DNA of 64,000 nt from Promethearchaeota archaeon (GTDB lineage: Archaea; Asgardarchaeota; Lokiarchaeia; Sigyniarchaeales; SOKP01), in the NCBI GenBank assembly GCA_016926735.1, contig JAFGOA010000011.1, forward strand, positions 1 to 64,000. The letters are read 5' to 3'. The translations under genes and the position numbers were made by a program. This document shows positions 2,289 through 49,029 of the stretch, piece by piece. Positions within the stretch are counted from its first letter, which is position 1. Each line of letters opens with the position of its first letter. The notes beneath the pieces are model-generated. The model saw only the letters and a program-made list of their open reading frames with translations. It was not told the origin of the DNA and made no database searches.

Positions 2289-4685
2289 TTATTTCACTTT
2301 AGATTTAAATTTTAAATATAATGCTTTATCTAAAAATTTTCCAATCTTTTTTGAAATTATTTTTGAAATTTCATATTTTTCTCCATCATATAATTCTATA
2401 CTGGTAATGTCTTCTTTTTTTTGAGTAGGACGATTTTCTAAAATTTGTTCAATATTCTTTTTTATGTCATTTTTCACGATATTTTGATCTGGTAATTTTA
2501 TCTCTGGTGTTAAACTTTTTATTTTATCTATAGCAAATAGGAAAAATTCTGTCAATCTCTCTATATTATTCCCTTCCAACTCACAATGTAATTTAATATT
2601 CTCTGTTGTAGTCTTTGTGTCTTTTTCTTGCCAGTATAATTGATTTGGATTTATTCCTGGGCTATTAATTCTCATTAAAGAGGATGTGATTCTACGTTCG
2701 ATCCAATTAAGAGTACTTGTTTTTTGTTTTTCTCGTATTAGAATTTTTTTATTTTCTATCTTTTGTTCTTTTAATTTAATTTCTTCAGTAATCGTGTGTC
2801 TTTTAAGTTCTTCAAATTGTTCGAATCTTTTAATGAGATCATATCCAAGGCAATATGAAATGGGAGAAATCAAATCCTTACTGAGTTTTATATCTTTAAC
2901 GTTTTGATATATTGGACTTGGAGAATTGTTATAAATTTTAATTGTTTTTTCTAATGATGAATCTATTAATCGTGCTAATATAAATCCATTAACAAGAAAG
3001 GGTTTATTATCTGCATTAAATATGAGAACTAATTCTTTTTGTCGTTTTTTTAATCGATTTATTAATAATTCCTCTAATTTTATCCATATCCATTCTTCTG
3101 ATTTATTTGTATTATACATTTTTTTTAAAGCTAAAAGATATAATGCTTTTTCGTCTGAGATCTTATTATATGCTTCAATAATTCTACTTAATTGTCTTAA
3201 AATTTTTGATAATATGAAAAAATAGATATCTTTAACGATTTTATTTAAAATTTCTTCAAAATCTAATGAAAAAAGAATTTGCGAATAATTATTAAGATCT
3301 AAATCTTTAAGAAAAATATCATCAATAACATCTTTTTTCTTCTTAAAGTCTCTTAAATCTGAAAATGAAATATTTATTTTTCTTTCTATTACATCCCATA
3401 ATTTCTCATTATCACTTTTTTCCATTTTTAATAAATCATCAAGATTTTTCTTTTCATTTCTGATATTATTTTCTACGTTCAATTCGTATATCTTTAATAA
3501 CGTATTTTTTGCAATACTTAATATGTTTTTTTTTTGATCATTAAGCTGTAATATATCAAATTTATTTATATTATATCTTACCATATTATCTTTAATTTTT
3601 CTGACAATTTCTTCATCCATATTCATAATATGTAGTATATTAAAAATCCCATATTTATTCAAAATATAGATTATTTCCCTAAAATTTTGTTCATTAATGT
3701 TCTGTAAAAAATATATAAAATCATTTGGATTTGTTCTAAATTGAAGAATTATCTCTTTTTTTAAGTAATCAAATACCTTATTTTCAAATATATCATAATC
3801 TATTTCTGTTTCTAAAGCATTCTCAATAATTCGGATTAGGGTTTTTTTTATTTTGTTTGCATTCTTAAAAGCTTTTAATCCCTGTATAGATACCGGAAAA
3901 CGATTAAGATCATATTCCATTATTTTTTTTTTTATCATCCTAACTGACATTGCATTCATTTTTAACTCTTGATATGATTTAAACTCAAATTTTGTTTGAA
4001 TTGAATTTTTTATTTTTATAAGTGTCGATAATTCTATATTTTTATCTTCTTTCTCATTAAGTTGTAATCTTTTCTCTAATTCAACAGAAATATCTCTTAA
4101 TTCTGCACTTTTTTCTAGAACTTCAACTTTGATTATATCCGTTAATCCAATTAGATCTCCAATAAGGTCATAAAAATTATAAGGCGAAAAATGTAATATA
4201 ATATCTAAAATTTCTTTTTCTAAATATTTATCAATTTCATTTAATAATAATTCTTTTTCACTTTCATTAATATCCTTTTTTCTTAAATTTATTAATAAAT
4301 CTAAAAATTTATCTTCTAATTCAATCAGTTTATATAATAATGCTATTTCAGATTCAAATGAATTATTTAATAATAATCTTATTTCTTTATAGATGGTTTT
4401 TTTTTCATTAACCTCTAAAATTTTTGAATATTCAAATGTACCTTTATTAAAATCTACTAATTCCCCTACTCTAATCCCATAATTATGATAGATATGAACA
4501 GAAGCTGTGGCGATTAATAAATCTTTTAAAGTTGGTTTTTTTTCTACCAGTTCAAAAATCTTTAATTTATCTGCTTCTCTTTTAAAATGAGATAGTATTA
4601 AATCAATTGTTTGAAAATATCTAAAAGTACTTTCAATAGCCGTTTTTTTTCTTTTTATTCCGGTTATCATAATTCTTTTATCCAC
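2289..4685 (-). CDS. Large alpha-helical hypothetical protein
   Basis: 798-aa ORF overlapping the upstream ORF by 19 nt; no recognisable catalytic motif. Confidence 0.8.
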   Translation of the reverse strand: MDKRIMITGIKRKKTAIESTFRYFQTIDLILSHFKREADKLKIFELVEKKPTLKDLLIATASVHIYHNYGIRVGELVDFNKGTFEYSKILEVNEKKTIYKEIRLLLNNSFESEIALLYKLIELEDKFLDLLINLRKKDINESEKELLLNEIDKYLEKEILDIILHFSPYNFYDLIGDLIGLTDIIKVEVLEKSAELRDISVELEKRLQLNEKEDKNIELSTLIKIKNSIQTKFEFKSYQELKMNAMSVRMIKKKIMEYDLNRFPVSIQGLKAFKNANKIKKTLIRIIENALETEIDYDIFENKVFDYLKKEIILQFRTNPNDFIYFLQNINEQNFREIIYILNKYGIFNILHIMNMDEEIVRKIKDNMVRYNINKFDILQLNDQKKNILSIAKNTLLKIYELNVENNIRNEKKNLDDLLKMEKSDNEKLWDVIERKINISFSDLRDFKKKKDVIDDIFLKDLDLNNYSQILFSLDFEEILNKIVKDIYFFILSKILRQLSRIIEAYNKISDEKALYLLALKKMYNTNKSEEWIWIKLEELLINRLKKRQKELVLIFNADNKPFLVNGFILARLIDSSLEKTIKIYNNSPSPIYQNVKDIKLSKDLISPISYCLGYDLIKRFEQFEELKRHTITEEIKLKEQKIENKKILIREKQKTSTLNWIERRITSSLMRINSPGINPNQLYWQEKDTKTTTENIKLHCELEGNNIERLTEFFLFAIDKIKSLTPEIKLPDQNIVKNDIKKNIEQILENRPTQKKEDITSIELYDGEKYEISKIISKKIGKFLDKALYLKFKSKVK

Positions 4686-6970
4686 TCTCTATATACTTCT
4701 TTAAAATTATCAGATAAACTAATCAAAATATTACCTTCTCCCCAATATTTTATGTTAAATACCTGAAACAATTCTCCTTTAAACAGTTCCTTTTCCTCAC
4801 TTGTAAAGATATGTTTAAGTATCAATGATTTAGGAATAGGAATTAATTTAGAAAAATATCTTAATTCATTTTTTCTCATATAATTATAAAAAGTATTCTC
4901 ATTATTAGCTTTAAGATATTCTATTGGAATATATTCCTGTGAAGATAAACTCGTAGTACTAGTTAATTTTTCAATTTTTCTTTTTATATATTTTGGAAAT
5001 TCTGTTTTTATTCCAAGAAAATATTCATATTGCTTAAAAAACTCAATTAATTTTTTTTTTATATCTTCATTTGTTTCTTGAGCTATATAATGATCCAAAA
5101 ATTCCAGAAATTTGTCAGGATTTTGTGAATCTCTCTCTCTGTCTTCTAAATAACCTATAAAATCATTATAGATCTCAATAATACTCCATTTTTTTTGAAC
5201 ATTCATTTTTAAAAATATCTTTGAATAATCCTTAATCCATTCAAGAATATATTTTTTCCAAGTTAAAGTAATTCCTGACAATCTTTTCTCTAAAAATCTA
5301 TGAAACTTAGTTGAAAATAATACAGGATCACTAATTTCTGTATTTGGTATTTCTTTTAAAAATCTATTTATTGTAGAATAACGTAAAATATAGCTCAATA
5401 GAAAATGCAGTTCTTCAGAAAATTTTTTAAATTCTTCTATTGATTTTATTATATTCTTTGAATCATATAAATTGATCTCAGCAAACGAAACAATATCTTT
5501 TATTTTTAATTCTACATCATTAAAAAAAATATCAATATTTTTAGAAATTAACTCTTTAAACGCTTTTAATATAACTGTATCATTAAAATTTCCATCTATT
5601 ATCGTAGAAAGAGATATTCTATCTATCTCCTTGAGAATATAGTCATAAAAATTTTCAATTATACGTTGTCCTAATATTTTCGATGGTTCTGGTTCTTTTA
5701 AAAGATCTATTTTTATGTCTTCTAAGAGTTTTTTGGCAAATAATCCCAGTTTTCTATTTACAAAATATTTAATCTTATAAGTATTTATCATAACAATACT
5801 ATTAGAAACTAATTCTGAAAAATAATTAAAAATCGATATTAACTCATTAGCTCTAATTTTTTCGGATTTAACAACCATTTGAGTTATAAATTTCTTAGTT
5901 ATGTCTAAAATTTCAGAGAAATTACCATTATCATGGGTTTTAATTTCTCTTTCAAATGCATTTACAATCTGTTCTACCGTCCCTACTTCTCCACTTATTT
6001 GAAAATTTTTACTTATTCTTAGAAAATCTTCGATATCTTTTTTATTTCTTAATAATATATCTTCAATTCTTTGTATCATCCATGATTCTGTTTTTTTATC
6101 CGTTTCTTTCCCAATATCTTCATTTATTTTTTTAATGAAATATTTTATCAATTTATTTTGAAAATAATCAATTGTACCTGTGTTTGCTAAATTTAAGAGA
6201 TTTGTACCTAAATACATTGTTTTTTCTATAATAAAATTTGCGCTTGGTTCTGTAATAGAAAATTTAAGATGATCATTTTCTGTTTTTCCCTCAAAAGAAT
6301 TTTTTAATTTATCAAATTTAGAATTGGATAAATTAACAACGACAGGATCCTTATGCCATTGTATATCTATTTTCGATCTAAATTTACAATATTTTTCTAA
6401 ATATTCTTTTTCTATTAAAGTTAAATCTGATAACCCAATCATTCCCTTATTCCATTTATTTTCAATCAATTGACTATATAAACTTTTAGTAAATCGAGAT
6501 GCAAATCGTGTATAAATAAGTTCTCTTTGTTCTTTGGTCAATTCTGGATGATTTGCATAATCTTCAACCTCAAAAAATAATTTACTTATTTTCGTAATAG
6601 CTTTATTTGATTTATGAATATCAAGAATACCTACATCTGGTTTTAAAGCTAGCATTAAACTTTCACATTCTTTATAGTTACCTGGTACTAATATCATTGA
6701 TTTTGGATAAATATTTGTAATATTTGCTTTTAGATTAAAATTTATTAATTCAAATTCTACAAAAAATAATTCAGAACCGGTATAATCCCTTAACATTGCA
6801 TTAAAGCTAGTTAAATAATTTATAACATCTTTGGAGAGTTCTTTAATAAGTGTTTTTTTTAAATTTCTCGGACCTACAATATCCCCAACAATCAAATTTT
6901 CTTTATTTGGTGAAGAATATCCAAATATTATAGAAAATTGATAATTAATTGATTCTCGAGTTGTTATCAT
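4667..6970 (-). CDS. Large, mostly helical hypothetical protein
   Basis: 767-aa ORF; first gene of a two-gene operon. Confidence 0.8.
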   Translation of the reverse strand: MITTRESINYQFSIIFGYSSPNKENLIVGDIVGPRNLKKTLIKELSKDVINYLTSFNAMLRDYTGSELFFVEFELINFNLKANITNIYPKSMILVPGNYKECESLMLALKPDVGILDIHKSNKAITKISKLFFEVEDYANHPELTKEQRELIYTRFASRFTKSLYSQLIENKWNKGMIGLSDLTLIEKEYLEKYCKFRSKIDIQWHKDPVVVNLSNSKFDKLKNSFEGKTENDHLKFSITEPSANFIIEKTMYLGTNLLNLANTGTIDYFQNKLIKYFIKKINEDIGKETDKKTESWMIQRIEDILLRNKKDIEDFLRISKNFQISGEVGTVEQIVNAFEREIKTHDNGNFSEILDITKKFITQMVVKSEKIRANELISIFNYFSELVSNSIVMINTYKIKYFVNRKLGLFAKKLLEDIKIDLLKEPEPSKILGQRIIENFYDYILKEIDRISLSTIIDGNFNDTVILKAFKELISKNIDIFFNDVELKIKDIVSFAEINLYDSKNIIKSIEEFKKFSEELHFLLSYILRYSTINRFLKEIPNTEISDPVLFSTKFHRFLEKRLSGITLTWKKYILEWIKDYSKIFLKMNVQKKWSIIEIYNDFIGYLEDRERDSQNPDKFLEFLDHYIAQETNEDIKKKLIEFFKQYEYFLGIKTEFPKYIKRKIEKLTSTTSLSSQEYIPIEYLKANNENTFYNYMRKNELRYFSKLIPIPKSLILKHIFTSEEKELFKGELFQVFNIKYWGEGNILISLSDNFKEVYREWIKEL

Positions 6971-10997: not shown

Positions 10998-13091
10998 TTG
11001 ATAATTATTTTAATAACTATCAATCATCTAATAAAATTAAATTTAAGGTTGTCAAAAATTAAAACTTATTTTTCAAATATTGATGTATCTGCAATTGTTA
11101 GAGAATTAGATCAATCTTTGACAATGGGTAGGATTATAAATGTCTATGAAATTGAAGAATTACTCATATTAAAGATTAATACAATTGAAGGAAATAAAAA
11201 TTTAATAATTAAAAAAGATGCACGTATCAATTTAACTGAATATAATTATCCCAAACCTAAATATCCTAGTCAATACATAATATCACTACGAAAGTTCCTT
11301 AAAAATAAGAAAATCACAAAAATATACCAATATAATTTTGATAGAATTCTCGTGATTGAATATATCGTTGAGGATAAAATCTGGAAATTTATAATTGAAC
11401 TATTTAACAAAGGAAATTATATAATTATCGATAATGAAAGCATAATAAGAGTTGCTAAAAGATATTTAAAATATAGAGATAGATCGATTCTTGCTAAAAA
11501 AGAATACTTTTTCCCAAAATCTTTTGGTATTAACTTTATGGAAATTAATAAGGATGAATTTCTAAGGATTTTAAATAAAGAATCTCAGATTGTTAAGATT
11601 TTTGCTAAAGAAATTAGTGTATCTGGTATTTATAGCGAAGAAATCTGTTTTAGAGCGAATATTGATAAAGAAATAATGGGAAATCAATTAACTAATGATC
11701 AGATTGATTCTTTATTCAATGCTTTTAAAAATTTAAGAAATGATTTACTATTTAAAGATATTAGAGCACATATTATTTATGATAATAAAAATCTTGAATT
11801 ATCTGTGCTTCCTTTTGAATTATTAATCTATAAAAATTATGAAAAGAAAGATTTTCCTACCTTTAATGAAGCAGTAGATTTTTATTTTTCCAAAATTGAT
11901 TCAAAAACTATTATTAAAGGATCAGATTCTCAAATTAATAATAAAATAAAATCTCAAAAAAAAATCCTCAATAATCAAACTGAATATATAGAACAACTTG
12001 GGTTAAAAATTAAGAAATATTATGATCAAGGAGACTTCATCTATGCTAATATGGACTCATTAGAGAAATTGTTGGATGTAATAAAAATCGCACGAAATAA
12101 GAAATATGCATGGGAAGATATAAATAATAAATTGATTCAGGCAAAAGAAAATAGTATGAATGAAGCATTATTTTTCAAAAAAATTATTCCATCTACACAA
12201 GAAATTGTATTAGAATATCATAATGGGGAAATCTATATAGATTCCAAAAAAACAATTGGAGAAAATGCAAATCTACTCTATCAGAAAGGAAAAAAATTGA
12301 AAAAGAAAAAAAAAGGCACTGAAGAAGCAATCGAAAAAACTAACAATACTTTAAAAAAACTAGAAAGAGAAAAAGAACACTATGAAGAAGAAATAGATTT
12401 TCTTGTAAAAAAACCAGAAAAAAAATGGTTTGAAAAATATCACTGGTTTAAATCATCAACAAATTTTCTTATAATCGGTGGGAGAGATGCATCATCTAAT
12501 GAATTAATATTTAGAAAGCATATTGATCCAAATGATTTAGTATTTCATACAATTTTTCCGGGATCACCATTAGTAATTATAAAAAATCCTGATAAAAAAA
12601 TAATATCTGAAGAAACAATTAAAGAGGTATCTATTTTTGTAGTAAGTTATTCTCAAGCATGGAAAGAGAATTGGGGATATGCAGATATCTTCTATGTAAA
12701 TCCAGAACAAATCTCAAAAACACCTCCTTCAGGTGAATTTCTACCAAAAGGATCTTTTATGATCGAAGGGAAAAAAAATATTATAAAAAGTGTGAAAACA
12801 GAATTAGCCATAGGCCTTCTTTTAGACGAAATGGATGGAGATGAGTATGAAAAAATCTATTATCCAAAAATTATATCTGGACCCATAAATGCAATTAAAA
12901 ATCAAACTGATAACTATTTAATTATTTCCCCCTCAAAATCAGGAGAAACCAAAGGAAAGATTGCTAAAAAAATTAAAAATTTCTTTATTGATAGAGGTAA
13001 AGAAAAAAGAAAATGGATAAAATTTCTCTCATTAGACGATATAATTCTAGTACTTCCGAATGGTTCTTCAAAGATCAATTATTCTAATTAG
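10998..13091 (+). CDS. rqcH: Ribosome quality-control protein RqcH/Rqc2 (NFACT family); true start probably slightly downstream
   Basis: FDRIL, IELFNKGN, KWFEKYHWF, GGRDASSNE, SKTPPSGEFLPKGSFMI. Confidence 0.9.
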   Translation: MIIILITINHLIKLNLRLSKIKTYFSNIDVSAIVRELDQSLTMGRIINVYEIEELLILKINTIEGNKNLIIKKDARINLTEYNYPKPKYPSQYIISLRKFLKNKKITKIYQYNFDRILVIEYIVEDKIWKFIIELFNKGNYIIIDNESIIRVAKRYLKYRDRSILAKKEYFFPKSFGINFMEINKDEFLRILNKESQIVKIFAKEISVSGIYSEEICFRANIDKEIMGNQLTNDQIDSLFNAFKNLRNDLLFKDIRAHIIYDNKNLELSVLPFELLIYKNYEKKDFPTFNEAVDFYFSKIDSKTIIKGSDSQINNKIKSQKKILNNQTEYIEQLGLKIKKYYDQGDFIYANMDSLEKLLDVIKIARNKKYAWEDINNKLIQAKENSMNEALFFKKIIPSTQEIVLEYHNGEIYIDSKKTIGENANLLYQKGKKLKKKKKGTEEAIEKTNNTLKKLEREKEHYEEEIDFLVKKPEKKWFEKYHWFKSSTNFLIIGGRDASSNELIFRKHIDPNDLVFHTIFPGSPLVIIKNPDKKIISEETIKEVSIFVVSYSQAWKENWGYADIFYVNPEQISKTPPSGEFLPKGSFMIEGKKNIIKSVKTELAIGLLLDEMDGDEYEKIYYPKIISGPINAIKNQTDNYLIISPSKSGETKGKIAKKIKNFFIDRGKEKRKWIKFLSLDDIILVLPNGSSKINYSN

Positions 13092-24956: not shown

Positions 24957-27900
24957 TTGACATATATAAAAAAAATTTCAATGACTGGATTCAAATCATT
25001 CGGAGATCGCACAGTAACTATAAAATTATCTCCAGGATTTACATGCGTTGTTGGTCCAAATGGAGCTGGTAAATCAAATATAATCGACGCTTTATGTTTT
25101 GCACTTGGACGATTATCAAAAAAAACTATGAGAGCTGAAAAACTTGAGGACCTTATTTTTGCGGGATCAAGAGCTCATAATCCTTCAAATCGTGCATCTG
25201 TGACTTTATATTTTGATAATTCTGATGGAACTTTTCCTGGAGGTACAAATGACTTTGAAATTACTCGTGTAGTAATTAAAGGTAAGGGAAATAAATATAA
25301 AATGAATGGACAGCGAGCAACCCGTCAACAAATCCTAAATGTTCTTGCAGCTGCAAATATTGATCCTGATGGTAGCAATCAATTTGTTCTACAAGGAAAA
25401 ATAGTTGAACTTACTCATATGAATACTGAAGAGCGACGAAAATTTATTGAAGAACTGATTGGGCTTCAAAAGTATGATGATATGAAGGATGATACTCTAA
25501 AGGAGTTGGAAAAAGCAGAACGTGATTTAGGACAATTTGAAGCTATTTTTAAAGAAGTATCTTCTCAGTTAAAAAAAGTTGAAAAAGAAAAAAATGATGC
25601 TTTAGCTTGGAAAGAATTGGACCAGAAAGTTAAAGAACTTAATGTTAAACTTATTGCTTTAAAAATTTCAAAATTAAAGGAAGAAGAAGAAGCAATCGAA
25701 AAAAAGATCGAGCAATCTCAAAAATATATTGAAGAAATTCAAGAGAAAATCTCACGTCAAGAAGAGACTCTTAAGCAAGAATCCTTAGTTATGGAAAATA
25801 TTCAGAAAGTCATAAATGAAAGGGAAAAAGAAAGAGATAATATAAATGAACAAATTACTCAATTAAAAACCGAGTTATCCTCACATCTGACGACTTCTGA
25901 TTTAGCAAAAAAGTCAATTGAAAAATTAAAAAAAGAAAGATCAAAACTAGAAAACCTTCAAATGCAGTTAGAAGAGGGACAGAATTATGATTCTTTAATT
26001 AATAATATAAACACCGAAATTGATAGTATTAAAATTAAAATTGAAAACTCAAAGAAAGAAATCGAGGAAAAACAACAAAATCAACAACAACTAGATGAAC
26101 AAATAAATAATGCTGAGAAAGAAAAATCAAAACTAATTTCAGATATTTCAAAATTTGAGCAAGAAATTTCATCAAAGGAAGCTAGTATTAATGGTCTGAA
26201 AGAAAATATAAAGAAAAATATCCAAAAAAAAGAAAAAAGAGAAGAAGAATTACAAGATCTTAAAGGGGAAGCTGAAAGCGTTGAAAGCGCTATGAAATTA
26301 GTAAAGGGAGAAGAAGAAAATATAAGAAAAGAAATTGAAATCGTTAAAATCCAGATATCTAAAGAAAATGAAAATAGAAAGAATTTAGAAAACAATATTA
26401 CAGTAAAACAAAAGGAGAAAAATATAATTATCTCAAATATATCTGAAATCAAATCCACATTGTCTTCAATTAGCACTGAAATTAAGATGTATAACGATAA
26501 TATCCAAAATCTTGAAAATAAAAAACTACTAATTAATCAAAAAATTGAAGATATAAGTAAGGGTTCTGAAATTGAAAAAGCATTAAAAAAAAATCTTGAA
26601 GATAGAAAACAACTCACTCAAGAATTAGATCAGATAAAGAAGAAAATTAAAGAAGAGGATTTTGAATTTAGGAAAAATGAAAAAAATCTTGAACTTATAA
26701 AAATGAAACAAAATGCTTTATTAACTGAAATAAATGATAATCAGTCAAAAATTAGTAACTTAGGAACAAAATCAAGAATTTTCCAAAAAGAATTCACTAA
26801 TTTAGAAAGGGAAATTAATACTATAACAGTAAATCTTGAAAATGTGAATAAAGATATTGAGGAAAATGATATTAATATAGAAAATCTCAATAAAAGAAAA
26901 GATAATATTATCCGTAGACTCGAGGAATTAAATGCTGAAAAAAAAAGAATTCAAGATAGAATTGATAATGCAGAACAAGAATATGAAAAAGATAAATCAG
27001 ATATTAATGGAATTTTACAGATCTTAAATATGTTAACTCAAAATATCAATATTTCTGTGGAATCTATAAAAAGTAATATTCAACAATCTAATTCTGAAGC
27101 CATTGATTATTCTGCTGAAGATTTTCGAAAATTTATCTTAGATGTTATTGATATGATGAAAACAATAGAGGATGTGAAATGTGAAACCAATACGGAAAAT
27201 ATTATTCCTATTCTTGAATCAATGGTACAAACATTATCATTATTTAATGAAAATGCAGATCAAACAATTGAACAACTAGTATATCGGATTAAAGAATCTG
27301 TGGATGTTGCTGTTCAAGATTCAACTTCGAATTTTGATCACTTTGTTCAAGATTTAATGGAAATATTGGAAAATGTTCATGTATCTCTAAGAAAATTAAC
27401 CGTTTCTAAAGGACAAGACCTATATAAACAACTTGAAGAAATAAGTGAGAGTATTCAAGAACAAGGAGATCAAGTAAATGAAATAGGAATGAATATCTCT
27501 GAACTTCAAATTAAAAATATTCATAATAATAAAGAGAAAACAACAAATCAAATTAAATTTGAAGAAGTGCAAAAAAGAATAAATGAATTAAATGAAAAAA
27601 ATACCGAATTTAATAAAGAAATAGATGAAAGAAATTCAATTATCAATGAGAGAAACAAACAAGAAGAAGAAATAAAAAAACAAATAGAGGAATTAAAGAA
27701 ATTTAGAGATGAACATTGGGATACGACAACCAAATTACAAGAAGAATTGGATAAAAAACAAAATAATATTTCAAACTTGGAACAAAAACTTCAAGATTTA
27801 AAAGGAATTGAAACGCTCTTTGAAAATCTCGATGATATATCACAAAATATAGAAAGTATAAAAAAATCAATCGAAGATAAAAAATTATCAATAATTGATA

Positions 27901-29396
27901 TTGAAGATAATATAAAAAATAAAAATGAAGAATTAAATGCAGTACAAAAAGAAATTGAGCAATTAAATAATAAAAAAGAAACTTTCTGGGAAATTAATAA
28001 ATCACTTCAAGAGAAGATAGAAGATAAAAACAAAGACCTTGAAAAAGTCTTGGATAGATTAAGATCATTAGAAAATATAGTAAGATTGATACATTCCATT
28101 GAAGAATTAAAAAATGAAAATATTGAAGCAGATAAAAAAATAAAAGATAATACTAAATTAATTGAAGAAGCTAAAACAAATATAGAAACCATTCAAAAAG
28201 ATGTAGATAAAAAACAAAAAATAACTGAGAATTTGAGAACTGAAAAATCTAAAATGATTAAAGAACAAAAAATTGCTCAAGAAAACCTTAATAATCTCAA
28301 TAAAGAATTTCAAGACGCACAATCAAAATTGAATGAACTCAATAAAAACAAGGATAGAGAAGAAAAGATTAATTCAATTTACTCTGAAATAGAACAAACT
28401 AAAAAACAAATAGAAGAGGTTCAAATTAAAATCAAAGACATTGAAACAAACCTTGAAGAAGTTAATGCCAAAAAGATTGAAAAACAAAATGAAATTGATA
28501 GAAATATTACTGAAAAAGATGAATCATGGAAAAAACAAAAACAATTTCAAAAAATTTATACAGATTTAAAATCTGACTTCTCGATGGAAAAATCAAAATT
28601 AAATAATTTAGAGTCAAAAAAGGTAATAAATAATGACCAAATTGAAGCATTATTTCATAGATCTAAAGATTTTGGAATCCTCCCTCAAGTTACGGAAGAT
28701 CTATCTGAAATGGATTTAGAAAATGATATAACCGCCTCAATTAAACAAAGAGAAGCTCTTGAACCTGTAAATCTAAGAGCAATCAAACAATATGATGCGG
28801 TAAAGGAACGATTTGATGAAATTGATATGAGAAGACAAACAATACAAAGAGAAAGAAAATCAATTCTAGATGCAATTGAAAAAATAGAATTAGAGAAATT
28901 TCAATCATTTACGAAAGCTTATCATGAAATAAACAGAGAATTCTCCAGAATATTTCAAAAATTATCTCCAGGAGGATCTGCTAAAATGATACTAGACAGA
29001 CCAGATAAACCTTTTGAAGGAGGAATTAGTATTGAGGCAAGACCTCGTGGAAAAAAAATATCCTCTCTTGAAATTTTAAGTGGAGGTGAGAAAACTCTTG
29101 TAGCACTCTCATTTATCTTTTCTGTTCAAGAATTCTATCCCGCACCTTTTTATATAATGGATGAGATTGATGCTGCGTTGGACGGTCCGAACGTACATCG
29201 TGTTTCCACGGTTATCCAAGAATTTTCTCATCAAGCACAGTTTATTGTTATAAGTCACCGAGAAGAAAATATTGTTAATGCTGAAAGGATATATGGTGTA
29301 TCAATGCAACAAAGTGGAATAACAGACGTATTCAGCGTTGATTTAGAAGAAGAAGCAAAACGTCTTTTGGATATTGAGAATGTAGAAGCAAATTAG
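24957..29396 (+). CDS. smc: Chromosome segregation ATPase SMC (elongated, non-canonical hinge)
   Basis: GFKSF, GPNGAGKSN, VLQG Q-loop, PVNLRAI, LSGGEK, IMDEIDAALD, QFIVISH; scpA and scpB downstream. Confidence 0.93.
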   Translation: MTYIKKISMTGFKSFGDRTVTIKLSPGFTCVVGPNGAGKSNIIDALCFALGRLSKKTMRAEKLEDLIFAGSRAHNPSNRASVTLYFDNSDGTFPGGTNDFEITRVVIKGKGNKYKMNGQRATRQQILNVLAAANIDPDGSNQFVLQGKIVELTHMNTEERRKFIEELIGLQKYDDMKDDTLKELEKAERDLGQFEAIFKEVSSQLKKVEKEKNDALAWKELDQKVKELNVKLIALKISKLKEEEEAIEKKIEQSQKYIEEIQEKISRQEETLKQESLVMENIQKVINEREKERDNINEQITQLKTELSSHLTTSDLAKKSIEKLKKERSKLENLQMQLEEGQNYDSLINNINTEIDSIKIKIENSKKEIEEKQQNQQQLDEQINNAEKEKSKLISDISKFEQEISSKEASINGLKENIKKNIQKKEKREEELQDLKGEAESVESAMKLVKGEEENIRKEIEIVKIQISKENENRKNLENNITVKQKEKNIIISNISEIKSTLSSISTEIKMYNDNIQNLENKKLLINQKIEDISKGSEIEKALKKNLEDRKQLTQELDQIKKKIKEEDFEFRKNEKNLELIKMKQNALLTEINDNQSKISNLGTKSRIFQKEFTNLEREINTITVNLENVNKDIEENDINIENLNKRKDNIIRRLEELNAEKKRIQDRIDNAEQEYEKDKSDINGILQILNMLTQNINISVESIKSNIQQSNSEAIDYSAEDFRKFILDVIDMMKTIEDVKCETNTENIIPILESMVQTLSLFNENADQTIEQLVYRIKESVDVAVQDSTSNFDHFVQDLMEILENVHVSLRKLTVSKGQDLYKQLEEISESIQEQGDQVNEIGMNISELQIKNIHNNKEKTTNQIKFEEVQKRINELNEKNTEFNKEIDERNSIINERNKQEEEIKKQIEELKKFRDEHWDTTTKLQEELDKKQNNISNLEQKLQDLKGIETLFENLDDISQNIESIKKSIEDKKLSIIDIEDNIKNKNEELNAVQKEIEQLNNKKETFWEINKSLQEKIEDKNKDLEKVLDRLRSLENIVRLIHSIEELKNENIEADKKIKDNTKLIEEAKTNIETIQKDVDKKQKITENLRTEKSKMIKEQKIAQENLNNLNKEFQDAQSKLNELNKNKDREEKINSIYSEIEQTKKQIEEVQIKIKDIETNLEEVNAKKIEKQNEIDRNITEKDESWKKQKQFQKIYTDLKSDFSMEKSKLNNLESKKVINNDQIEALFHRSKDFGILPQVTEDLSEMDLENDITASIKQREALEPVNLRAIKQYDAVKERFDEIDMRRQTIQRERKSILDAIEKIELEKFQSFTKAYHEINREFSRIFQKLSPGGSAKMILDRPDKPFEGGISIEARPRGKKISSLEILSGGEKTLVALSFIFSVQEFYPAPFYIMDEIDAALDGPNVHRVSTVIQEFSHQAQFIVISHREENIVNAERIYGVSMQQSGITDVFSVDLEEEAKRLLDIENVEAN

Positions 29397-29460: not shown

Positions 29461-30042
29461 TTGACTAAGTTTTTCTTTTTTATAGTAATAAAATTCTTGT
29501 TGAGAATTCTTATGCTTATATCTCCATCTCAAGAAACAAAATTATTAAAAATAATTATTGCTGGAAATGCAAGTGTGGGTAAAACTACCTTGATCAAACG
29601 TTATATTGAAGGAATATTTTTAAAAAACTCTAAAATGACTGTTGGTGTTGAACATTATGCTAAAGAAATAGAAATATCTGATTTTGTTTGTAAGATGCAA
29701 TTATGGGATTTGGGTGGTCAAGATAGGTTTCGATATATTTTAGATTTTGCAATAAAAGGAGCTCATGGTGCGTTATTATTATTCGACATTACAAATTATA
29801 GTAGTTTTATTTCTATAGATAAATGGGTAAAATTATTAAGATCTGAGAATGATAACTTACCCATCCTCTTAGTTGGTACTAAAACAGATCTTCAAAATTG
29901 TTCAGTTGTTAAAGATGTTCTCATTCCAAAAGTGGTAAAAAGAAATAATTTCTCTAATTATTTAGAAACATCTTCAAAAACGGGTTTAAATATAGAAAAT
30001 GTTTTTCAATCCATCCTTTCAGATATTTTAATACAAAATTAA
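29461..30042 (+). CDS. Rab-like small GTPase (probable start ATG 29512)
   Basis: GNASVGKT, TVG, WDLGGQ, GTKTD, ETSSK; no C-terminal prenylation Cys. Confidence 0.9.
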   Translation: MTKFFFFIVIKFLLRILMLISPSQETKLLKIIIAGNASVGKTTLIKRYIEGIFLKNSKMTVGVEHYAKEIEISDFVCKMQLWDLGGQDRFRYILDFAIKGAHGALLLFDITNYSSFISIDKWVKLLRSENDNLPILLVGTKTDLQNCSVVKDVLIPKVVKRNNFSNYLETSSKTGLNIENVFQSILSDILIQN

Positions 30043-30134
30043 AAATTTTTTTTTTGGATTTTTATAATTTTGCTTTTACTTTTTATATATAGTTACAAAT
30101 GACAAATTAATATAATAAGGAAGTGATTTCACCA

Positions 30135-30251
30135 TTGGAAATTAACAAAAAAATTATAGTTGGACTTACTATTTTATTAACTGTAGCTTATGGATTATCA
30201 CTTGCTACTGCTGGTGTAAGTTATCCAGGATGTGCAGAAGGACAACCATAA
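30135..30251 (+). CDS. Unannotated 38-aa secreted-peptide precursor
   Basis: TTG start after GGAAGTGA SD-like motif; MEINKKIIVGLTILLTVAYGLSLATA|GVSYPGCAEGQP; TATA-like TTTTATATAT at 30081-30090; T-tract downstream. Confidence 0.65.
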   Translation: MEINKKIIVGLTILLTVAYGLSLATAGVSYPGCAEGQP

Positions 30252-30285
30252 ATATATATAAAAAAATAAAATTAAGGTCCCAATA

Positions 30286-30304
30286 TTTTTTCTTTTTTTT
30301 TTTT
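30286..30304 (+). terminator. Oligo-T terminator-like tract after the peptide ORF
   Basis: Near-uninterrupted T run ~35 nt after the stop codon. Confidence 0.45.
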
Positions 30305-30460
30305 CCAAATTGTAATGATAATTTAAAACTTTATAGAATTATTAAATTAAAAAGAATTCTTTAGTCTAAAAGATTCAATTTAAAATGCAGTTTTTATAGG
30401 TTAAAAAAAAAAGAATGATATAAGATAATTTTTAAATTTAAAAATTTAAGTGGACTTATA

Positions 30461-31279
30461 ATGGAACCCAAAAAACTAAAATATAAAAATTTCTTTTTTA
30501 TTCTCGGTATTTCTTTAATATTTTTATATATATTTCTATTCCTATTCATATGGCCTCAAATTAGCAACATCTTTAATAATATAGAATCTTATTTAGCAAT
30601 TCTTATTATTATCTTTAGAATATTGATCTTTGGGTCTTTTACTGCTTTCTTATTAAAGAAATGGTTTAATCAAGAAGCTATTTATACATCTGATGCATAT
30701 TTCCTATTTTCTTTATTTTTTATAATTTTAATTATGGGAAAAGGTGTTGATCTTATAATTTCTTTAATATATTTAGATAATCTAATTAATTCAGATTATA
30801 TGTTAATTTTCTTTAAAATTAGATATATTATTATTGTGATTAATGCTATCCCTTTGCTGTTTTTAGGATTAGAAGTATTGATAAATCTGTTTGACATTTA
30901 TGTAAAAAAAATACCAAAAACTAAAATTAATTATATAAAGATATCAATTGTATCCGTTTTCTTAATAATAAATTCTATTGTTATTTTGATTTCTCCTAGT
31001 ACAGAAGTAATTCAAAATATTTTACCTATAATTACAACCTTAACAATGATTGGAATTGTTATCTTATTTGTATTAATGTATAAAATCAAACGGTTATCTC
31101 AAGCACATGGATTAATTATAGGTATAGGCTTTCTTTTTGTTATAATTTCTCATATTTTAAGACCAATTTTCACTAAAGATTTCAATGTATCCATACTAAT
31201 TATCGCCGAGATGATAGATCAACTGATTTATATAATAATTTTCATTGGTTTTATAAAAAAACCTCCCTATATATACTGA
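30461..31279 (+). CDS. Polytopic membrane protein (8 hydrophobic helices; 1+7TM receptor-like)
   Basis: Eight hydrophobic segments containing intramembrane charged residues (R, K..D, R, E..D); no soluble domain. Confidence 0.7.
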   Translation: MEPKKLKYKNFFFILGISLIFLYIFLFLFIWPQISNIFNNIESYLAILIIIFRILIFGSFTAFLLKKWFNQEAIYTSDAYFLFSLFFIILIMGKGVDLIISLIYLDNLINSDYMLIFFKIRYIIIVINAIPLLFLGLEVLINLFDIYVKKIPKTKINYIKISIVSVFLIINSIVILISPSTEVIQNILPIITTLTMIGIVILFVLMYKIKRLSQAHGLIIGIGFLFVIISHILRPIFTKDFNVSILIIAEMIDQLIYIIIFIGFIKKPPYIY

Positions 31280-31390: not shown

Positions 31391-32431
31391 TTGAATTCAT
31401 TTACCTATAAAAATGATAATGGGCTTAATAGAACTATGAGTGAAAAACAAAAGGAAGAAGAATATAATTTTAAAAATTTTACGATAAAACAATTAAGAGA
31501 TTTTGCCGCTGTTAATCATATTTCTATTCCTACAAAATCAAAAAAAATAGATATAATAGAATTATTAGAAAAGATCGTAAAAAGTCCTGAATTTATCGAT
31601 CGGAATAAAGAAGAATTTTTTGAAGAAGAACTAGTTGTTGATTTTAATGATGAGGACGTTGCTCCTCTCTTTAGAAAAGAAGAAAAAGAATTGAAATTTT
31701 GGCAAAAACCTCCTTTTTCTACTTTATTAAATTTGGAATTAGCTAAAGATTCTGATATTGCATTCTATGATTTATCAAATTTAGTTAATAAATTTTTTGA
31801 TAAGATGCTTCATGAAGATTTTATCAATTATAAAGTCTCTGGAATTGCTTTAAAAACTTCTGCATCTTTACATCATCATAAAATTACCAGTATTATTAAA
31901 GAAGAAGAAGATATTCAAAAAAAAGAAGAAATTGAACAATTTAGACAAAGAACGAGAAGAGGAATTCCTAAAACATTAACCCAACCAATTCAATCAAAAC
32001 TTAAGATAACAAGTAAAGATGAACTTTTTGAAGCTATGAGAGCAGCTATAATAGAAACAATGCAGAAAAAAGAAAAATTAAGACGACAAAGATTAAGAAA
32101 AGAGGAAAAATTACAACGAAAAAAAGAATTATCAGCAAAAGCTCAATTACCAAAAGAATTACTAAAACATATTAGTGGAAGAGAACAAACAATTGAAGAG
32201 TTACTTGATAATTGGTATAGCAAAATTAAAGCAATTATTAAATTTGAAGAAAAAGAAGCTGCTAATTTTTATGGTCTAATTAATCTAATTAATGAAGATC
32301 AAGAAACGGTTTTAGGTAGAAAATATGAATTTGTAAGAATGTTTTTAGCATTAATGTTTCTCAGCACAAACAATAGAATATCTCTTGAACAAAATCAAGA
32401 TTTTACTGATATAAACATTAAAATAAAATAA
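31391..32431 (+). CDS. scpA: Kleisin ScpA with extra N-terminal HeH/Rho-N-like domain (probable start ATG 31436)
   Basis: YDLSNLVNKF...INYKVSGIALKTSA N-terminal helices; FLALMFL...ISLEQ...F.DI C-terminal winged helix. Confidence 0.8.
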   Translation: MNSFTYKNDNGLNRTMSEKQKEEEYNFKNFTIKQLRDFAAVNHISIPTKSKKIDIIELLEKIVKSPEFIDRNKEEFFEEELVVDFNDEDVAPLFRKEEKELKFWQKPPFSTLLNLELAKDSDIAFYDLSNLVNKFFDKMLHEDFINYKVSGIALKTSASLHHHKITSIIKEEEDIQKKEEIEQFRQRTRRGIPKTLTQPIQSKLKITSKDELFEAMRAAIIETMQKKEKLRRQRLRKEEKLQRKKELSAKAQLPKELLKHISGREQTIEELLDNWYSKIKAIIKFEEKEAANFYGLINLINEDQETVLGRKYEFVRMFLALMFLSTNNRISLEQNQDFTDINIKIK

Positions 32432-32450: not shown

Positions 32451-33272
32451 GTGACAATTATTATGAATAATGATATCAATAAATCTGAAAATAATGATGA
32501 AAACGATATAGATAAAACTAAAGATGATGATCAAGATTCTTTTAATGACAATATTATTGGCAATGATGAAAAAATAATAGAGGAAAGTAATAGTGAAATA
32601 GATAATATTGATAATGATGAATTCTCAAAAAATGAAAATTTTAATGGAAAATTCTCAGAAGAAAATAACAATGAAATCGGCAATCTTGAGAAAAACAATC
32701 AAGAACAATCTCAAGAAGAAAAAAAAACCACTAAAGACCCATCTGAGGAGGAAATTCATGATATTTATAGAAATCTAGTAGAAGGGGCTCTTTATGCTGC
32801 AGGAAAATCGCTATCCATTGAAGAAATCTCTACAAAATTAAATCTTTCAAAAATTGAGATAGAAGACTTGCTTAATGAACTTCTTGAAATTTATCATAAT
32901 AGATCGAGTGCTATCACCATAATTAAATTAGGAGATAAATATCAAATGCAAATAAAGACTGAATATGCTGAAAAAATCTCTCAATTTGCTCAAGGAGGGG
33001 CTATCTCTGAAAAATATTTAAGAACTCTTACAATTATTGCATTAAAACAACCAATTTTAAAATCTCTTGTGATAAAAATAAGAGGAACTGGAGCATATGA
33101 ACACATTAAATTTCTTGAAGAAAATGGATTTATTGTTTCTGGTAAAAAAGGAAGATCTGCTGAACTAATCACAACTGATAAATATGCAGAAATGTTTGGT
33201 CTTCCGAAAGATAAACAAGAAATGAAAAAAGTTATGATTGAACAATTAGGAATTGAAAAAAAATCAAATTAA
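32451..33272 (+). CDS. scpB: ScpB (kite) with acidic N-terminal extension
   Basis: VEGALYAAG..LS, LRTL.IIA.KQPI, IRG..AY.H, TT..Y...FGL. Confidence 0.9.
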   Translation: MTIIMNNDINKSENNDENDIDKTKDDDQDSFNDNIIGNDEKIIEESNSEIDNIDNDEFSKNENFNGKFSEENNNEIGNLEKNNQEQSQEEKKTTKDPSEEEIHDIYRNLVEGALYAAGKSLSIEEISTKLNLSKIEIEDLLNELLEIYHNRSSAITIIKLGDKYQMQIKTEYAEKISQFAQGGAISEKYLRTLTIIALKQPILKSLVIKIRGTGAYEHIKFLEENGFIVSGKKGRSAELITTDKYAEMFGLPKDKQEMKKVMIEQLGIEKKSN

Positions 33273-45825: not shown

Positions 45826-48800
45826 GTGTGTTTTAAAATTAAAGAAGAAGAAGATCAGATAAAACAAGGAACAATCGCAGGATTCATGAGAAAAAGAACT
45901 CAGCTAGTTGGTTTTGAGTTTGGATACTGGAAACATACCCAATATTCTGCTGAATTTCTAGATAACGCACTTGATGCTATTGAGGCCTTTCAATGGGAAG
46001 AATTGAAAAAAAGTGATTCTCAAATTAAATATACACTTGATCAAGATGCAAATTTAGAAAACCTCTCAAATTTATGGAAAAAAGATTTTGAAAAAAAAGA
46101 TCAGAATCTTGAAAGTGATATAAAATATAGATCTAATGAAACCATTAATTCAGAGCAACATTATAGAGCTCTAATTGATGACAATGAAAAAGTTGAAACT
46201 GAAAAATTATCAAAAAAAAAAGAAGAGATTGAAGAACTAGAAGTTACACATATTATTAACGATTTAGAAACACTTCTCGCTCCTTTAAACAATTTAAATA
46301 TTATTGATAAAGAACCGGTAGTTATTATTAGATTGAATGAATCTGAAGCACATTCTTTATTAACCGGTGAAATTGATGCTAAAAATATAATGAGTTATCA
46401 GTTTGAGATATTTGATAATGGGCAAGGAATGTCTAAAATTGATTTGAGAAAATATGGAAAATATTTAGCATCATCAAAAAGCTCTGAATTAAAACAAACA
46501 AGGGGTAGTCAAGGATTTGGAGCCCCAAGTGCATTTAGTGATGCCCAAAACACAACAGGAAAACCTGTTATTGTAATATCTAAAAATATTGATCATTTAT
46601 ATGCTTCAGCTTCAGAGTTCTTCACAACATCTAAAAATGAAAAAAAATATGTTATTCATCCTACAGAAATTGATTCACCTTTTCTTCATGGTACTTATAT
46701 TAAACTAAATTATCTTAATATAAAATACATTCGTGGATATGTTGATACTTATATTCAACAAACAGCATTAATGAATCCTCATGTCACACTTATTTTTATC
46801 GATCCTAATAACGAAGAATATATATATCCTCGAAAGGTTTCTTCTTTTCCATCTCAGCCAAAATACGCCAAACCACATCCTTCATCAACAAATATCGGAG
46901 ATCTTCAAGATTTATTAGCAAAATCAGAGAATAATTCATTAATATCCTTCTTTAAAGAAAATTTTGTTAGGATGAGTAATAAAATTGCAAAAGATGTGTT
47001 AAATCTAGCTGAAAATGATCTTCAAGATAATTTAAACTTATTTGTATTAGAAAATGGTTATATTAATAAAAATAAATCATCTGATGAACCAATTTATTTT
47101 ATTCGATTTGAAAAGAGAATATATGGAAAGTCATCAAAACCAAGAGATAAAATTATAGTATATGAAATCATATCTGATAATCTAAAAAGGATTTATTGGG
47201 AGACGATTTTAGAATATAATAAAAATCATAGTGAAATAGAGAAAATCTATAAAAAAATAAAAAAAAAGAAAGATAAAATTCAAAATACTGATACTAAAAA
47301 AGAAATTTCTAAAATTAAGTCTGAAATAAAAAATTACAATCAGGCGATTGAAAAATATAAAAAAGAAAAAGAATTATTAAAAAGGAAAATTGAAAGTGTA
47401 TTAAAACTTAATAATATTGATTTTAAGGAGATAAAAAATAAAAAAATTACAGAAAAATATTCGGATTTAGTAAAAGAAGTTAAGATTTCAGAAGCGAAGC
47501 CAGAGAGCCTTACTAATAACCAATTTAATTCACTGTTTCTCGCTTTTAAATCAATTAAATATATGGCTCCTCCAACAGATACCGTTGTTCCTGTTGGTGA
47601 TATTGTGCTTGAAAACACTTTAATTAAAGAATTAGATCTTAGAGTGTCTGAGAATTTAGATGATTTTGGTAATGTAAGCCAAAAATTAATTCAAACTTCA
47701 AAATATTTACTTGAACAAAAAAAAGAATTAATAAAAAAAGAAAAAAACAATAATGACGCATTAGAAGATATAAAAATAAATGATTCAGAAATAAAAGATT
47801 TTAGTTCAAAGATTTTATCTTCTTTTTTTTTGAATAATACAAGTTTTGAACCTGAAAATTACTTAAAAAATATAAGAGATATATTAGATTCTAATGAGAA
47901 ATCTGAGAAAGTCTTATATCAAGATGTTTTTGAATATTTTATTGAAAATTTTACTAGAGAAGATGATTTTGTAGCAGCAGAAACTAGGGATCCAACAAGT
48001 GGTAAAGGATTAGCATATGTAGTTGAAGCTGTAATGGCATATTCAAATAAATTAGGAATACCAAAACGTTCAAGGGATGTATTATCTCGATTTGTAAATA
48101 GAACTCCAAAATTACGAGACACAGCAGATTGTGCAATTACTAAAGCAGTACAATCTGTTAATTGGAAAAACTATAAATTAGAGCTTTTTGAAAATAACCT
48201 TCCAAAGGGACCAATCCAACTTTTAGTTAATGTTTCAGGACCATATGTTCATTTAATGTTTAAATCTCAATCTAAAAATGCTTTAGCTGATGATGAAAGA
48301 TTAATTAGTGAGATTAAATATTGTTTAGAAGCAATTGGCAGAAGATTAAGAATTTATCTAAATAGAAGAGCGAAAATTCATAGTAAGGAAAAGAGAGCGA
48401 ATTTAATTGAAAAATATATTCCTCCTTTTATTGAAAGTTTGTATAATATTGCCTCTAAGGGAGGAAAATTCAAAGATCAAATAAGTCTTAAAAACCTAGA
48501 AAATTTAATGATTGAAGCTATTAAAAAACCTATACTACAACCTACAAAATCCTTAACATCTGAACCACCTAAAGAAAAAGTTCTCAAAACAGAGAAATTG
48601 AAAGAAGAAGAACTTATAGAAACATCTGTAATTGGCAGTGTTATATCCTCTGAGAAAGAAGCTCAAGAGATTAAAACATTGTCTGTTCCAAAAGTGGAAA
48701 GAAGCGAAATAAAAGATGAAATTCATACTACTTTTATTACACATAGAAAATCTTCTTACACACCAAAACCTATAAAGAAAGAAGTTTCCAAACCAAAACC

Positions 48801-49029
48801 ACAATTAATAAAGAGTAAACAAACACAATTACCTATTTTAACTACAGAAGTGATAATGAATGCTTTAGATAGGAACGAATGGCAAAATATGAAACATTTA
48901 ATTTTTAAACTGAGAATAAAAGATATGCTTGATGCAAGATTACTTCAAGTAAAATTAAAAGAGTTGGAAAAAAAAGGAAGTGTTTTTGGAATGATTCAAA
49001 AGGGAAAACATTTTTGGAAATTAAAATAA
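45826..49029 (+). CDS. top6B: DNA topoisomerase VI subunit B with large insertions
   Basis: EFLDNALDA, DNGQGM, SSK....QTRGSQGFG, HGT, NPH, PHP, RFVNRTP, FKSQSK; adjacent to top6A. Confidence 0.88.
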   Translation: MCFKIKEEEDQIKQGTIAGFMRKRTQLVGFEFGYWKHTQYSAEFLDNALDAIEAFQWEELKKSDSQIKYTLDQDANLENLSNLWKKDFEKKDQNLESDIKYRSNETINSEQHYRALIDDNEKVETEKLSKKKEEIEELEVTHIINDLETLLAPLNNLNIIDKEPVVIIRLNESEAHSLLTGEIDAKNIMSYQFEIFDNGQGMSKIDLRKYGKYLASSKSSELKQTRGSQGFGAPSAFSDAQNTTGKPVIVISKNIDHLYASASEFFTTSKNEKKYVIHPTEIDSPFLHGTYIKLNYLNIKYIRGYVDTYIQQTALMNPHVTLIFIDPNNEEYIYPRKVSSFPSQPKYAKPHPSSTNIGDLQDLLAKSENNSLISFFKENFVRMSNKIAKDVLNLAENDLQDNLNLFVLENGYINKNKSSDEPIYFIRFEKRIYGKSSKPRDKIIVYEIISDNLKRIYWETILEYNKNHSEIEKIYKKIKKKKDKIQNTDTKKEISKIKSEIKNYNQAIEKYKKEKELLKRKIESVLKLNNIDFKEIKNKKITEKYSDLVKEVKISEAKPESLTNNQFNSLFLAFKSIKYMAPPTDTVVPVGDIVLENTLIKELDLRVSENLDDFGNVSQKLIQTSKYLLEQKKELIKKEKNNNDALEDIKINDSEIKDFSSKILSSFFLNNTSFEPENYLKNIRDILDSNEKSEKVLYQDVFEYFIENFTREDDFVAAETRDPTSGKGLAYVVEAVMAYSNKLGIPKRSRDVLSRFVNRTPKLRDTADCAITKAVQSVNWKNYKLELFENNLPKGPIQLLVNVSGPYVHLMFKSQSKNALADDERLISEIKYCLEAIGRRLRIYLNRRAKIHSKEKRANLIEKYIPPFIESLYNIASKGGKFKDQISLKNLENLMIEAIKKPILQPTKSLTSEPPKEKVLKTEKLKEEELIETSVIGSVISSEKEAQEIKTLSVPKVERSEIKDEIHTTFITHRKSSYTPKPIKKEVSKPKPQLIKSKQTQLPILTTEVIMNALDRNEWQNMKHLIFKLRIKDMLDARLLQVKLKELEKKGSVFGMIQKGKHFWKLK

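Follow-up and report, generated by a model that had tools for sequence, protein, structure and literature searches.

The window analysed here, a stretch of 64,000 nucleotides from the Promethearchaeota archaeon assembly GCA_016926735.1 (contig JAFGOA010000011.1, positions 1 to 64,000), encodes a condensin-type SMC-ScpAB ATPase that has lost its alpha/beta hinge. The gene lies at positions 24957-29396 of the forward strand, begins with a TTG codon and specifies a protein of 1479 amino acids, referred to below as the long SMC. Where a hinge would be expected, the chain is predicted to continue as a coiled coil into a helical hairpin with a duplicated, strongly conserved tip. High confidence attaches to the SMC identity, the absence of the hinge, the hairpin model, the homology of the repeats, the distribution, the paralogy and the operon partners. 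The explanation as a whole, in which two chains of a hinge-less SMC-ScpAB would dimerise through the tips of their hairpins, is regarded as probable, with appreciable room for doubt.

An SMC ATPase without a hinge

A Pfam scan matched PF02463 (SMC_N) to residues 3-1456 with a score of 143.6 bits. When scanned against NCBIfam, the long SMC scored 592.4 bits with TIGR02168, exceeding the cut-off of 567.35, and 639.4 bits with TIGR02169, under the cut-off of 729.4. The NCBIfam alignment is collinear and falls into two parts, residues 3-503 matching model positions 1-494 and residues 967-1463 matching model positions 676-1181. Residues 504-966 lie between these matches, and the region in which a hinge would be sought is therefore about 460 residues long, where approximately 180 would be expected. 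The head is divided between an N-terminal half (24957-25466, approximately residues 1-170; SMC_N model positions 1-135), which carries the Walker A motif GPNGAGKS at residues 33-40, and a C-terminal half (28824-29396, approximately residues 1290-1479; SMC_N model positions 73-219), which carries the signature LSGG at residue 1374 and the Walker B motif FYIMDE at residue 1398; both halves are on the forward strand and the boundaries of both are approximate. The highest head scores were obtained with models of prokaryotic SMC equivalogs, while anti-phage models reached just 17-18 bits. The head motifs, called canonical in the original prediction, made from the letters of the window, are thus present, and its view of the protein as a genuine SMC-ScpAB is supported by the TIGR02168 score (that of TIGR02169 being below its cut-off) and by the presence of dedicated ScpA and ScpB genes.

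The hinge family PF06470 (SMC_hinge) was not found by Pfam in the whole protein at E ≤ 0.01. At the relaxed threshold of E ≤ 1, neither residues 601-948 nor three homologues gave a hinge match, residues 601-948 matching only generic coiled-coil families below their cut-offs, and PF06470 was absent from the precomputed domain column of all 120 homologues listed. Residues 451-950 contain six glycines, a single proline (residue 751) and a single cysteine (residue 742). No CxxC zinc hook was found anywhere in the long SMC, which has three cysteines in all. A relaxed form of the hinge glycine motif, G-x(5-7)-G-x(2-4)-GG, was absent from seven of seven long SMCs, whereas nine of 13 canonical Asgard SMCs have it, as do three of three SMCs of the sister group described below; the same motif is also absent from five canonical SMCs of the window's order and from four SMC5/6-like sequences. 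The apex region was modelled by AlphaFold2 (residues 581-910) as entirely helical, with no alpha/beta hinge fold. An empty hinge scan and a midpoint devoid of both the glycine motif and CxxC had been anticipated from the sequence, and the Pfam scans, the motif scan and the residue counts agree with that expectation.

The apex hairpin and the arms

Two similar units had been noted at the protein midpoint, within an interval (27000-27410) that does lie in the middle of the gene, and were quoted as residues 686-734 (27012-27158) and 756-804 (27222-27368). As delimited here, unit 1 comprises residues 682-741 (27000-27179) at the end of the ascending helix, and unit 2 comprises residues 752-811 (27210-27389) at the start of the descending helix, with mean column identities among 29 sequences of 80% and 76%, respectively. 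Between them is a variable turn (27174-27209, residues 740-751) holding the only proline and the only cysteine of the region; all three features are read on the forward strand. Profiles of the two units, built from 29 homologues, were aligned by hhalign in register over 55 ungapped columns with a probability of 97.6%, an E value of 4.8e-12 and a score of 57. Controls consisted of 92 comparisons with 46 further coiled-coil windows, each of 60 residues, from that alignment, and gave at most a score of 14.7 and a probability of 2.6%. A profile dot-plot gave a score of 72.1 at an offset of 70, whereas 20 column shuffles reached at most 45.0. BLASTP of one half of the 27000-27410 interval against the other yielded no alignment at E ≤ 100, and the duplication is therefore visible with profiles only. 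These profile comparisons indicate that the two units are homologous repeats.

The AlphaFold2 model, computed for residues 581-910 from an alignment of 29 sequences, consists of two helices (residues 582-739 and 749-909) joined by one short turn, with a mean predicted local distance difference test (pLDDT) score of 83.3. The turn corresponds to the non-helical residues 740-748, and pLDDT falls below 50 at residues 741-744. On this model the units would be the two strands of a coiled-coil tip flanking the turn, rather than a globular domain. Of the duplicated all-helical module originally proposed, duplication and helicity are upheld, and its status as a separate domain is not.

The two units are the most conserved part of the approximately 330 residues compared. 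Entropy per column was 0.97 and 1.09 bits in the units, 1.43-2.13 bits in the flanking arms and 2.32 bits in the turn, the length of which differs among homologues. Hydrophobic positions make up 35-38% of the units against 17-28% of the arms, while the heptad hydrophobic moment is approximately 0.01-0.04 in the units against 0.13-0.16 in the arms. The combination of many hydrophobic positions with a near-zero heptad moment points to an apolar face broader than a two-stranded coil would require. The hydrophobic core positions are adjoined by invariant polar residues (Q, N, S, T, K and D). A sequence profile search of the PDB returned nothing significant, the best match being an adhesin coiled coil (E 0.0066), and the best score in the ESM Atlas was 0.83, short of the level taken as a lead. 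Foldseek against the PDB recovered generic long hairpins only (chemoreceptor, dynein stalk, Rad50, the MukB elbow and SMC arms), with template modelling (TM) scores of at most 0.41.

The long SMC exceeds the hinge-bearing Asgard SMCs in length, at 1479 amino acids versus approximately 1173-1206 (n = 18). Its antiparallel coiled-coil arm is covered by the AlphaFold2 hairpin for residues 582-739 and 749-909, and the remainder is deduced from the collinear matches to SMC models and from Tropomyosin-type matches in homologues. The two arm strands are approximately 570 and 540 residues long, roughly 1.6-1.7 times the canonical arm. Judged against the same shuffled maximum of 45.0, dot-plots of the ascending strand scored 78.5 (residue 376 versus 474, offset 98), 68.1 (280 versus 377, offset 97) and 68.5 (282 versus 477, offset 195), and those of the descending strand 84.7 (902 versus 992, offset 90) and 52.7 (956 versus 1136, offset 180). 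The ascending repeats (25764-26936, forward strand, approximately residues 270-660) form about four tandem units of 97-98 residues and the descending repeats (27624-28616, forward strand, approximately residues 890-1220) about four of 90 residues, all boundaries being approximate. To judge from these self-comparisons, the extra arm length comes from the tandem repeats of approximately 97 and 90 residues. In a representative of 1296 amino acids the apex module lies about 100 residues earlier, at 583-716, which fits one repeat fewer per strand. At a rise of 0.148 nm per residue, an arm of this length would measure approximately 80-85 nm. For Bacillus subtilis Smc the figure in the abstract of PMC5526789 is 49 nm. 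A foreign insertion of about 460 residues at 504-966 was also considered; in view of the arm repeats, internal duplication explains this stretch better.

Distribution, paralogy and gene neighbourhood

A word-indexed search with residues 640-860 matched 169 proteins. Among the 120 homologues listed, most are 1470-1487 amino acids in length with 55-88% identity over the query stretch, and the named sources are Lokiarchaeota or Promethearchaeota with a few Thor- or Hodarchaeota. In a survey of genomes in which seven candidates were scored per genome, the module was found in 134 of 400 genomes of the phylum, comprising 131 of the 154 in the window's order and 3 of the 246 outside it. By family of that order, it was present in 114 of 135 genomes of f1, to which the present genome belongs, in the single genome of f2, in all 14 of f3 and in two of four of f4; complete open frames carrying it in the order are approximately 1480-1515 codons long. 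The three genomes outside the order are represented by fragmentary contigs (57-62% identity), by an 8.6-kb contig whose SMC branches inside the long clade and by a weak match; the first two cases are possibly mis-binned.

The hinge family was found in 305 of the 400 genomes. Within f1, 13 of 135 genomes gave a strong hinge match (E 1e-25 to 1e-35, in a frame of about 1200 amino acids), 112 gave weak matches only (E 1e-4 to 1e-11) and 10 gave none; strong matches were present in 10 of 14 f3 genomes and three of four f4 genomes. The weak matches in f1 are of the SMC5/6-like type, and with 112 weak and 10 null results the long SMC therefore usually stands alone in this family. Five other genomes examined hold both types, and in each of them the long smc precedes a scpA and a scpB of its own. 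For three of the five canonical copies in these genomes, those that were scanned, the canonical SMC (hinge 106-112 bits) adjoins a ScpB gene of its own. Both SMC types thus have their own partners in some genomes, which identifies the long SMC as a paralogue with a duplicated partner set.

The genome from which the window derives (99.3% complete, in 238 contigs) contains a single ScpB above cut-off and a single ScpA, each within the window, and its only hinge match is to a divergent SMC of 1161 amino acids on another contig. It has lost the canonical hinge-bearing SMC copy, and the long SMC is its only ScpAB-linked SMC. The earlier suggestion that a hinge had been replaced in a condensin SMC was accurate as to the missing hinge and the helical apex; the gene itself is an order-wide paralogue in which the arms have also been lengthened.

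The second SMC gene (G000:C109:19777-23262, equivalent to L010:4777-8262, forward strand) scored 32 bits with the hinge family and 233 bits with TIGR02168. It is flanked by reading frames at L010:3570-4787 (405 amino acids) and L010:8273-8923 (216 amino acids), neither of which matched a family. Together these three genes probably encode a complex related to SMC5/6, in which the kleisin and the kite are divergent. The label SMC5/6-like, as used throughout, is taken from the description of an SMC5/6-related archaeal paralogue in the portion consulted of bioRxiv 10.1101/2024.01.07.573240, not from comparison with eukaryotic sequences.

The origin of the long SMC was examined in three quick maximum-likelihood trees of 32 SMCs rooted on four SMC5/6-like sequences, two of them computed from every well-filled column, each with its own filling threshold, and the third from the first and last 330 residues only. 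In all three trees the seven long SMCs formed one clade with a support of 100 within the canonical-type clade, and a branch with a support of 100 separated them from the four SMC5/6-like sequences. Their sister group, with support of 94-96 in the Shimodaira-Hasegawa-like approximate likelihood ratio test (SH-aLRT), consists of three SMCs of approximately 1189-1193 amino acids from sister orders of the same class. These bear a hinge (PF06470 at 29-47 bits, motif G..IS..GIISGG) and have a ScpB-like neighbour. Retention of the hinge in the sister group points to its loss after the split, and the branching suggests that the gene arose as a paralogue of a hinge-bearing SMC.

The apex hairpin also occurs in proteins that have no SMC head. 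A HMMER scan of 1.84 billion representatives with an apex profile yielded 38 proteins at E ≤ 0.001, consisting of long SMCs and their fragments together with headless proteins of approximately 920-1180 amino acids. Three headless genes were located in f3 genomes (L063:9688-13044, forward; L060:7981-10746, reverse; L057:6997-10122, reverse), encoding products of 921-1118 amino acids that matched no Pfam family. These contain the complete hairpin of about 200 residues as a tandem pair, scoring 87 and 38 bits in one of the proteins, and their C-terminal tails are rich in lysine; one relative gave a sub-threshold match resembling histone H1. In the present genome the module query matched the SMC itself only, and no headless module gene was found. 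A gene for a HEAT-repeat protein stands next to the headless gene of L063. A match of the apex profile to the HEAT-repeat protein P0156 (E 7.7e-6, nine stretches) was rejected as spurious helical-repeat similarity.

The partner genes of the long SMC lie downstream on the forward strand. The ScpA-like kleisin gene (31391-32431, 346 amino acids) matched PF02616 weakly, at 19.3 bits by hmmscan, below the cut-off, and at 24.1 bits, or 25.4 with neighbouring stretches, in a genome search, over the cut-off; its product is 39-51% identical to that of the gene following the long smc in five other genomes. The ScpB kite gene (32451-33272, 273 amino acids) is well matched by PF04079 (113 bits) and TIGR00281 (100.3 bits against a cut-off of 89.2). 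Both genes do follow smc as had been stated, although in the window two others intervene (29461-31279, forward strand), a Ras-family GTPase gene (29461-30042; PF00071, 141.7 bits) and a 272-amino acid reading frame (30461-31279) with no family match in Pfam or NCBIfam. In the five other genomes scpA follows smc directly, without the two inserted genes. A long smc with its own scpA and scpB was present in all six genomes checked, namely that of the window and five of five others.

The long smc is situated among genes of replication and the chromosome, with an Orc1/Cdc6-like gene upstream and genes for topoisomerase VI, MCM and UvrD in the neighbourhood; no Mre11-type family was found by Pfam among eight neighbouring reading frames scanned. 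The topoisomerase VI subunits are encoded at 45826-49029 (B) and 49036-50235 (A), both forward, subunit B being unusually long at 1067 amino acids with a transducer domain only at residues 712-856. Between these genes and MCM is a gene for a HEAT-repeat protein of 1118 amino acids (51465-54821, forward), residues 813-984 of which, approximately, matched PDS5 (51.2 bits, cut-off 27) and condensin Cnd1 (46.3 bits, cut-off 26.4). It is possibly a hawk-like protein in an Asgard genome, or its matches may reflect generic HEAT similarity. The MCM helicase gene (54955-58734, forward) contains a LAGLIDADG intein in the P-loop domain (Intein_splicing 72.7 bits, LAGLIDADG_3 66.8 bits). Elsewhere in the window are two overlapping large reading frames on the reverse strand (2289-4685 and 4667-6970; 798 and 767 amino acids), with no Pfam family at E ≤ 1e-5, and a gene for an NFACT-family protein (10998-13091, forward; NFACT_N 182 bits, NFACT-R_1 117 bits) of the ribosome-quality-control type of archaea and eukaryotes.

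Possible role of the apex and comparison with known systems

In the arrangement proposed for the long SMC, each chain would fold back as usual, the coiled coil continuing as far as the hairpin turn at residues 740-748, and the approximately 55 residues on either side of the turn would constitute the conserved, acidic, duplicated helix pair. Two chains would join at their tips, the wide hydrophobic faces of the hairpins coming together in a four-helix bundle comparable with that of Rop or of chemoreceptors, and this bundle would take over the dimerisation role of the hinge. At the heads the ring would be closed by ScpA, to which ScpB would bind. Dimerisation at the tips is suggested by the peak of conservation, the wide hydrophobic face, the variable turn and the paired hairpins of the headless family. 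The variable turn favours contact side by side over contact end to end, and the tandem arrangement in the headless proteins fits hairpins that work in pairs. A tip-to-tip dimer, ring closure and a chromosomal function are all proposals for the long SMC.

Several observations weigh against this arrangement. Both the sequence and the length of the extreme turn are variable, which makes a strict tip-to-tip contact of the zinc-hook kind unlikely. Model confidence is lowest at the tip, where the mean pLDDT of 10-residue blocks is 56-78, and the predicted TM score was 0.43. Residues 682-811 have a net charge of -16 (7 K/R against 23 D/E), and such a charge together with strong conservation would suit a partner-binding surface equally. 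Among the other f1 genomes, 21 of 134 gave no module match with seven candidates scored in each, some of these genomes being 91-98% complete. The trees, finally, were quick searches with SH-aLRT support only and no bootstraps, in which long stems lead to the long clade as well as to its sister.

The acidity of the tip would also suit a different function, that of a docking site for a loader, a chromatin protein or a headless module protein, or of a regulatory or DNA-mimicking element that folds back on the heads, ScpAB or the arms; the chains would then be held together by arm contacts and ScpA. The invariant polar residues beside the hydrophobic core positions are in keeping with such a surface, as are the headless, lysine-tailed proteins with two hairpins in f3 of the same order, and arm contacts are described in the consulted text of PMC5526789 as helping the dimerisation of hinge-less Smc. 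The failure of the module query to find a headless protein in the present genome means that such a partner cannot be general, and wide hydrophobic faces are met more typically in the buried interfaces of bundles than at polar docking sites. This reading, the main rival of the proposed arrangement, is held to be unlikely, though worth keeping in mind.

Less room still is left for an apex that simply caps an over-long arm as a monomer, the protein then being a single-armed or head-dimerised SMC-like ATPase that forms no hinge-closed ring. The AlphaFold2 monomer is indeed a self-contained hairpin, the ASRP and Rad50 models match the long SMC in part, and natural SMC-related proteins without a hinge exist, actinobacterial cases being described in the portion consulted of PMC12153180. 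The strongest conservation among about 330 residues, across an order, is not what a mere cap would show, however, and a cap would need no hydrophobic face wider than that of the arms; moreover, the kleisin and kite, which in known systems bridge two heads, have been kept. This possibility is therefore considered improbable. A specialised or defence-type SMC following a Wadjet- or Lamassu-like logic with ScpAB-like partners would accord with a lineage-specific paralogue found in some genomes alongside a canonical SMC-ScpB pair, but is very improbable for a gene that is present in 131 of 154 genomes of its order, is the sole ScpAB-linked SMC of this genome, sits among replication and chromosome genes and has its best head scores with prokaryotic SMC equivalogs rather than with anti-phage models.

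The hinge is regarded as a defining part of SMC proteins, being the site of dimerisation and, according to several models, one that binds DNA or acts as a DNA gate as well. An order-wide SMC-ScpAB without a hinge would thus serve as a natural experiment on which functions of the hinge are dispensable, and the long SMC bears equally on the way in which two arms can be joined by an all-helical tip and on the evolution of arm length. In engineered B. subtilis Smc, replacement of the hinge by a Rad50 hook is reportedly tolerated, as are changes of arm length in certain steps. Asgard archaea are the group closest to the ancestors of eukaryotes, and for SMC duplications that preceded eukaryotes the long SMC represents a third ScpAB-type lineage in its class, in addition to the canonical and SMC5/6-like lineages. 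These questions would be open to direct test in cultured Loki-type archaea and with recombinant apex fragments. As a tentative extrapolation, which may well prove wrong, the hinge-less SMC could have become the sole ScpAB-type motor of most members of a large Asgard family, performing the whole chromosomal task with a plain four-helix-bundle tip and neither DNA site nor gate at a hinge; arm length could have changed in steps of approximately 90-97 residues, and the headless lysine-tailed proteins might be a new class of apex-binding proteins that tether the SMC tip to DNA. A hinge-less SMC of the Loki type was not found described in the literature consulted, which took in parts of papers on archaeal SMC evolution and did not extend to the supplements of bioRxiv 10.1101/2024.01.07.573240.

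Several known systems share individual features with the long SMC. Chemoreceptors and Rop provide examples of hairpins with a conserved tip region, two of which dimerise as a four-helix bundle. The chemoreceptor cytoplasmic domain 2ch7, likewise a long helical hairpin, was the best Foldseek match (E 7.4e-5), but with TM-scores of just 0.37-0.39 and an E value of 1.3 in the PDB profile search the resemblance is an analogy of shape only. RecN dimerises via the distal end of its helical arm, and an all-helical apex for dimerisation would be common to both proteins if the role proposed here is right. RecN is, however, a protein of approximately 550 amino acids with short arms and no kleisin or kite, and its model TIGR00634 scored 26.4 bits on the long SMC against a cut-off of 407.85. 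Rad50/SbcC also has a hairpin apex without a globular hinge, is among the hairpins recovered by Foldseek and matches the head in part, its models reaching 41-106 bits against cut-offs of 700-1087 (best 106.3 against 1087); the long SMC differs in having no CxxC and in its partners, ScpA and ScpB. The ASRP model NF045487 (593 positions) scored 139 bits against a cut-off of 300, its best stretch being the C-terminal head. The hinge-less SMC variants of marine Actinobacteria, known from ocean metagenomes, have heads and coiled coil with neither hinge nor CxxC (PMC12153180). These are bacterial and of a different lineage, and the consulted part of their description, by which they are compared here, mentions no conserved duplicated apex, ScpAB linkage or longer arms.

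The closest relationship is with canonical Smc-ScpAB (TIGR02168/TIGR02169; PF02463 with PF06470), with which the long SMC shares the ABC head motifs, the antiparallel coiled coil and the kleisin and kite genes. It differs in having neither hinge nor glycine motif, in the predicted duplicated-helix hairpin at its apex and in longer arms apparently built from repeats, and since the defining hinge was sought and is absent it is not a plain member of prokaryotic Smc. The hinge-bearing sister paralogue has in common with the long SMC a ScpB-like neighbour, and is distinguished from it by normal length and a retained hinge.

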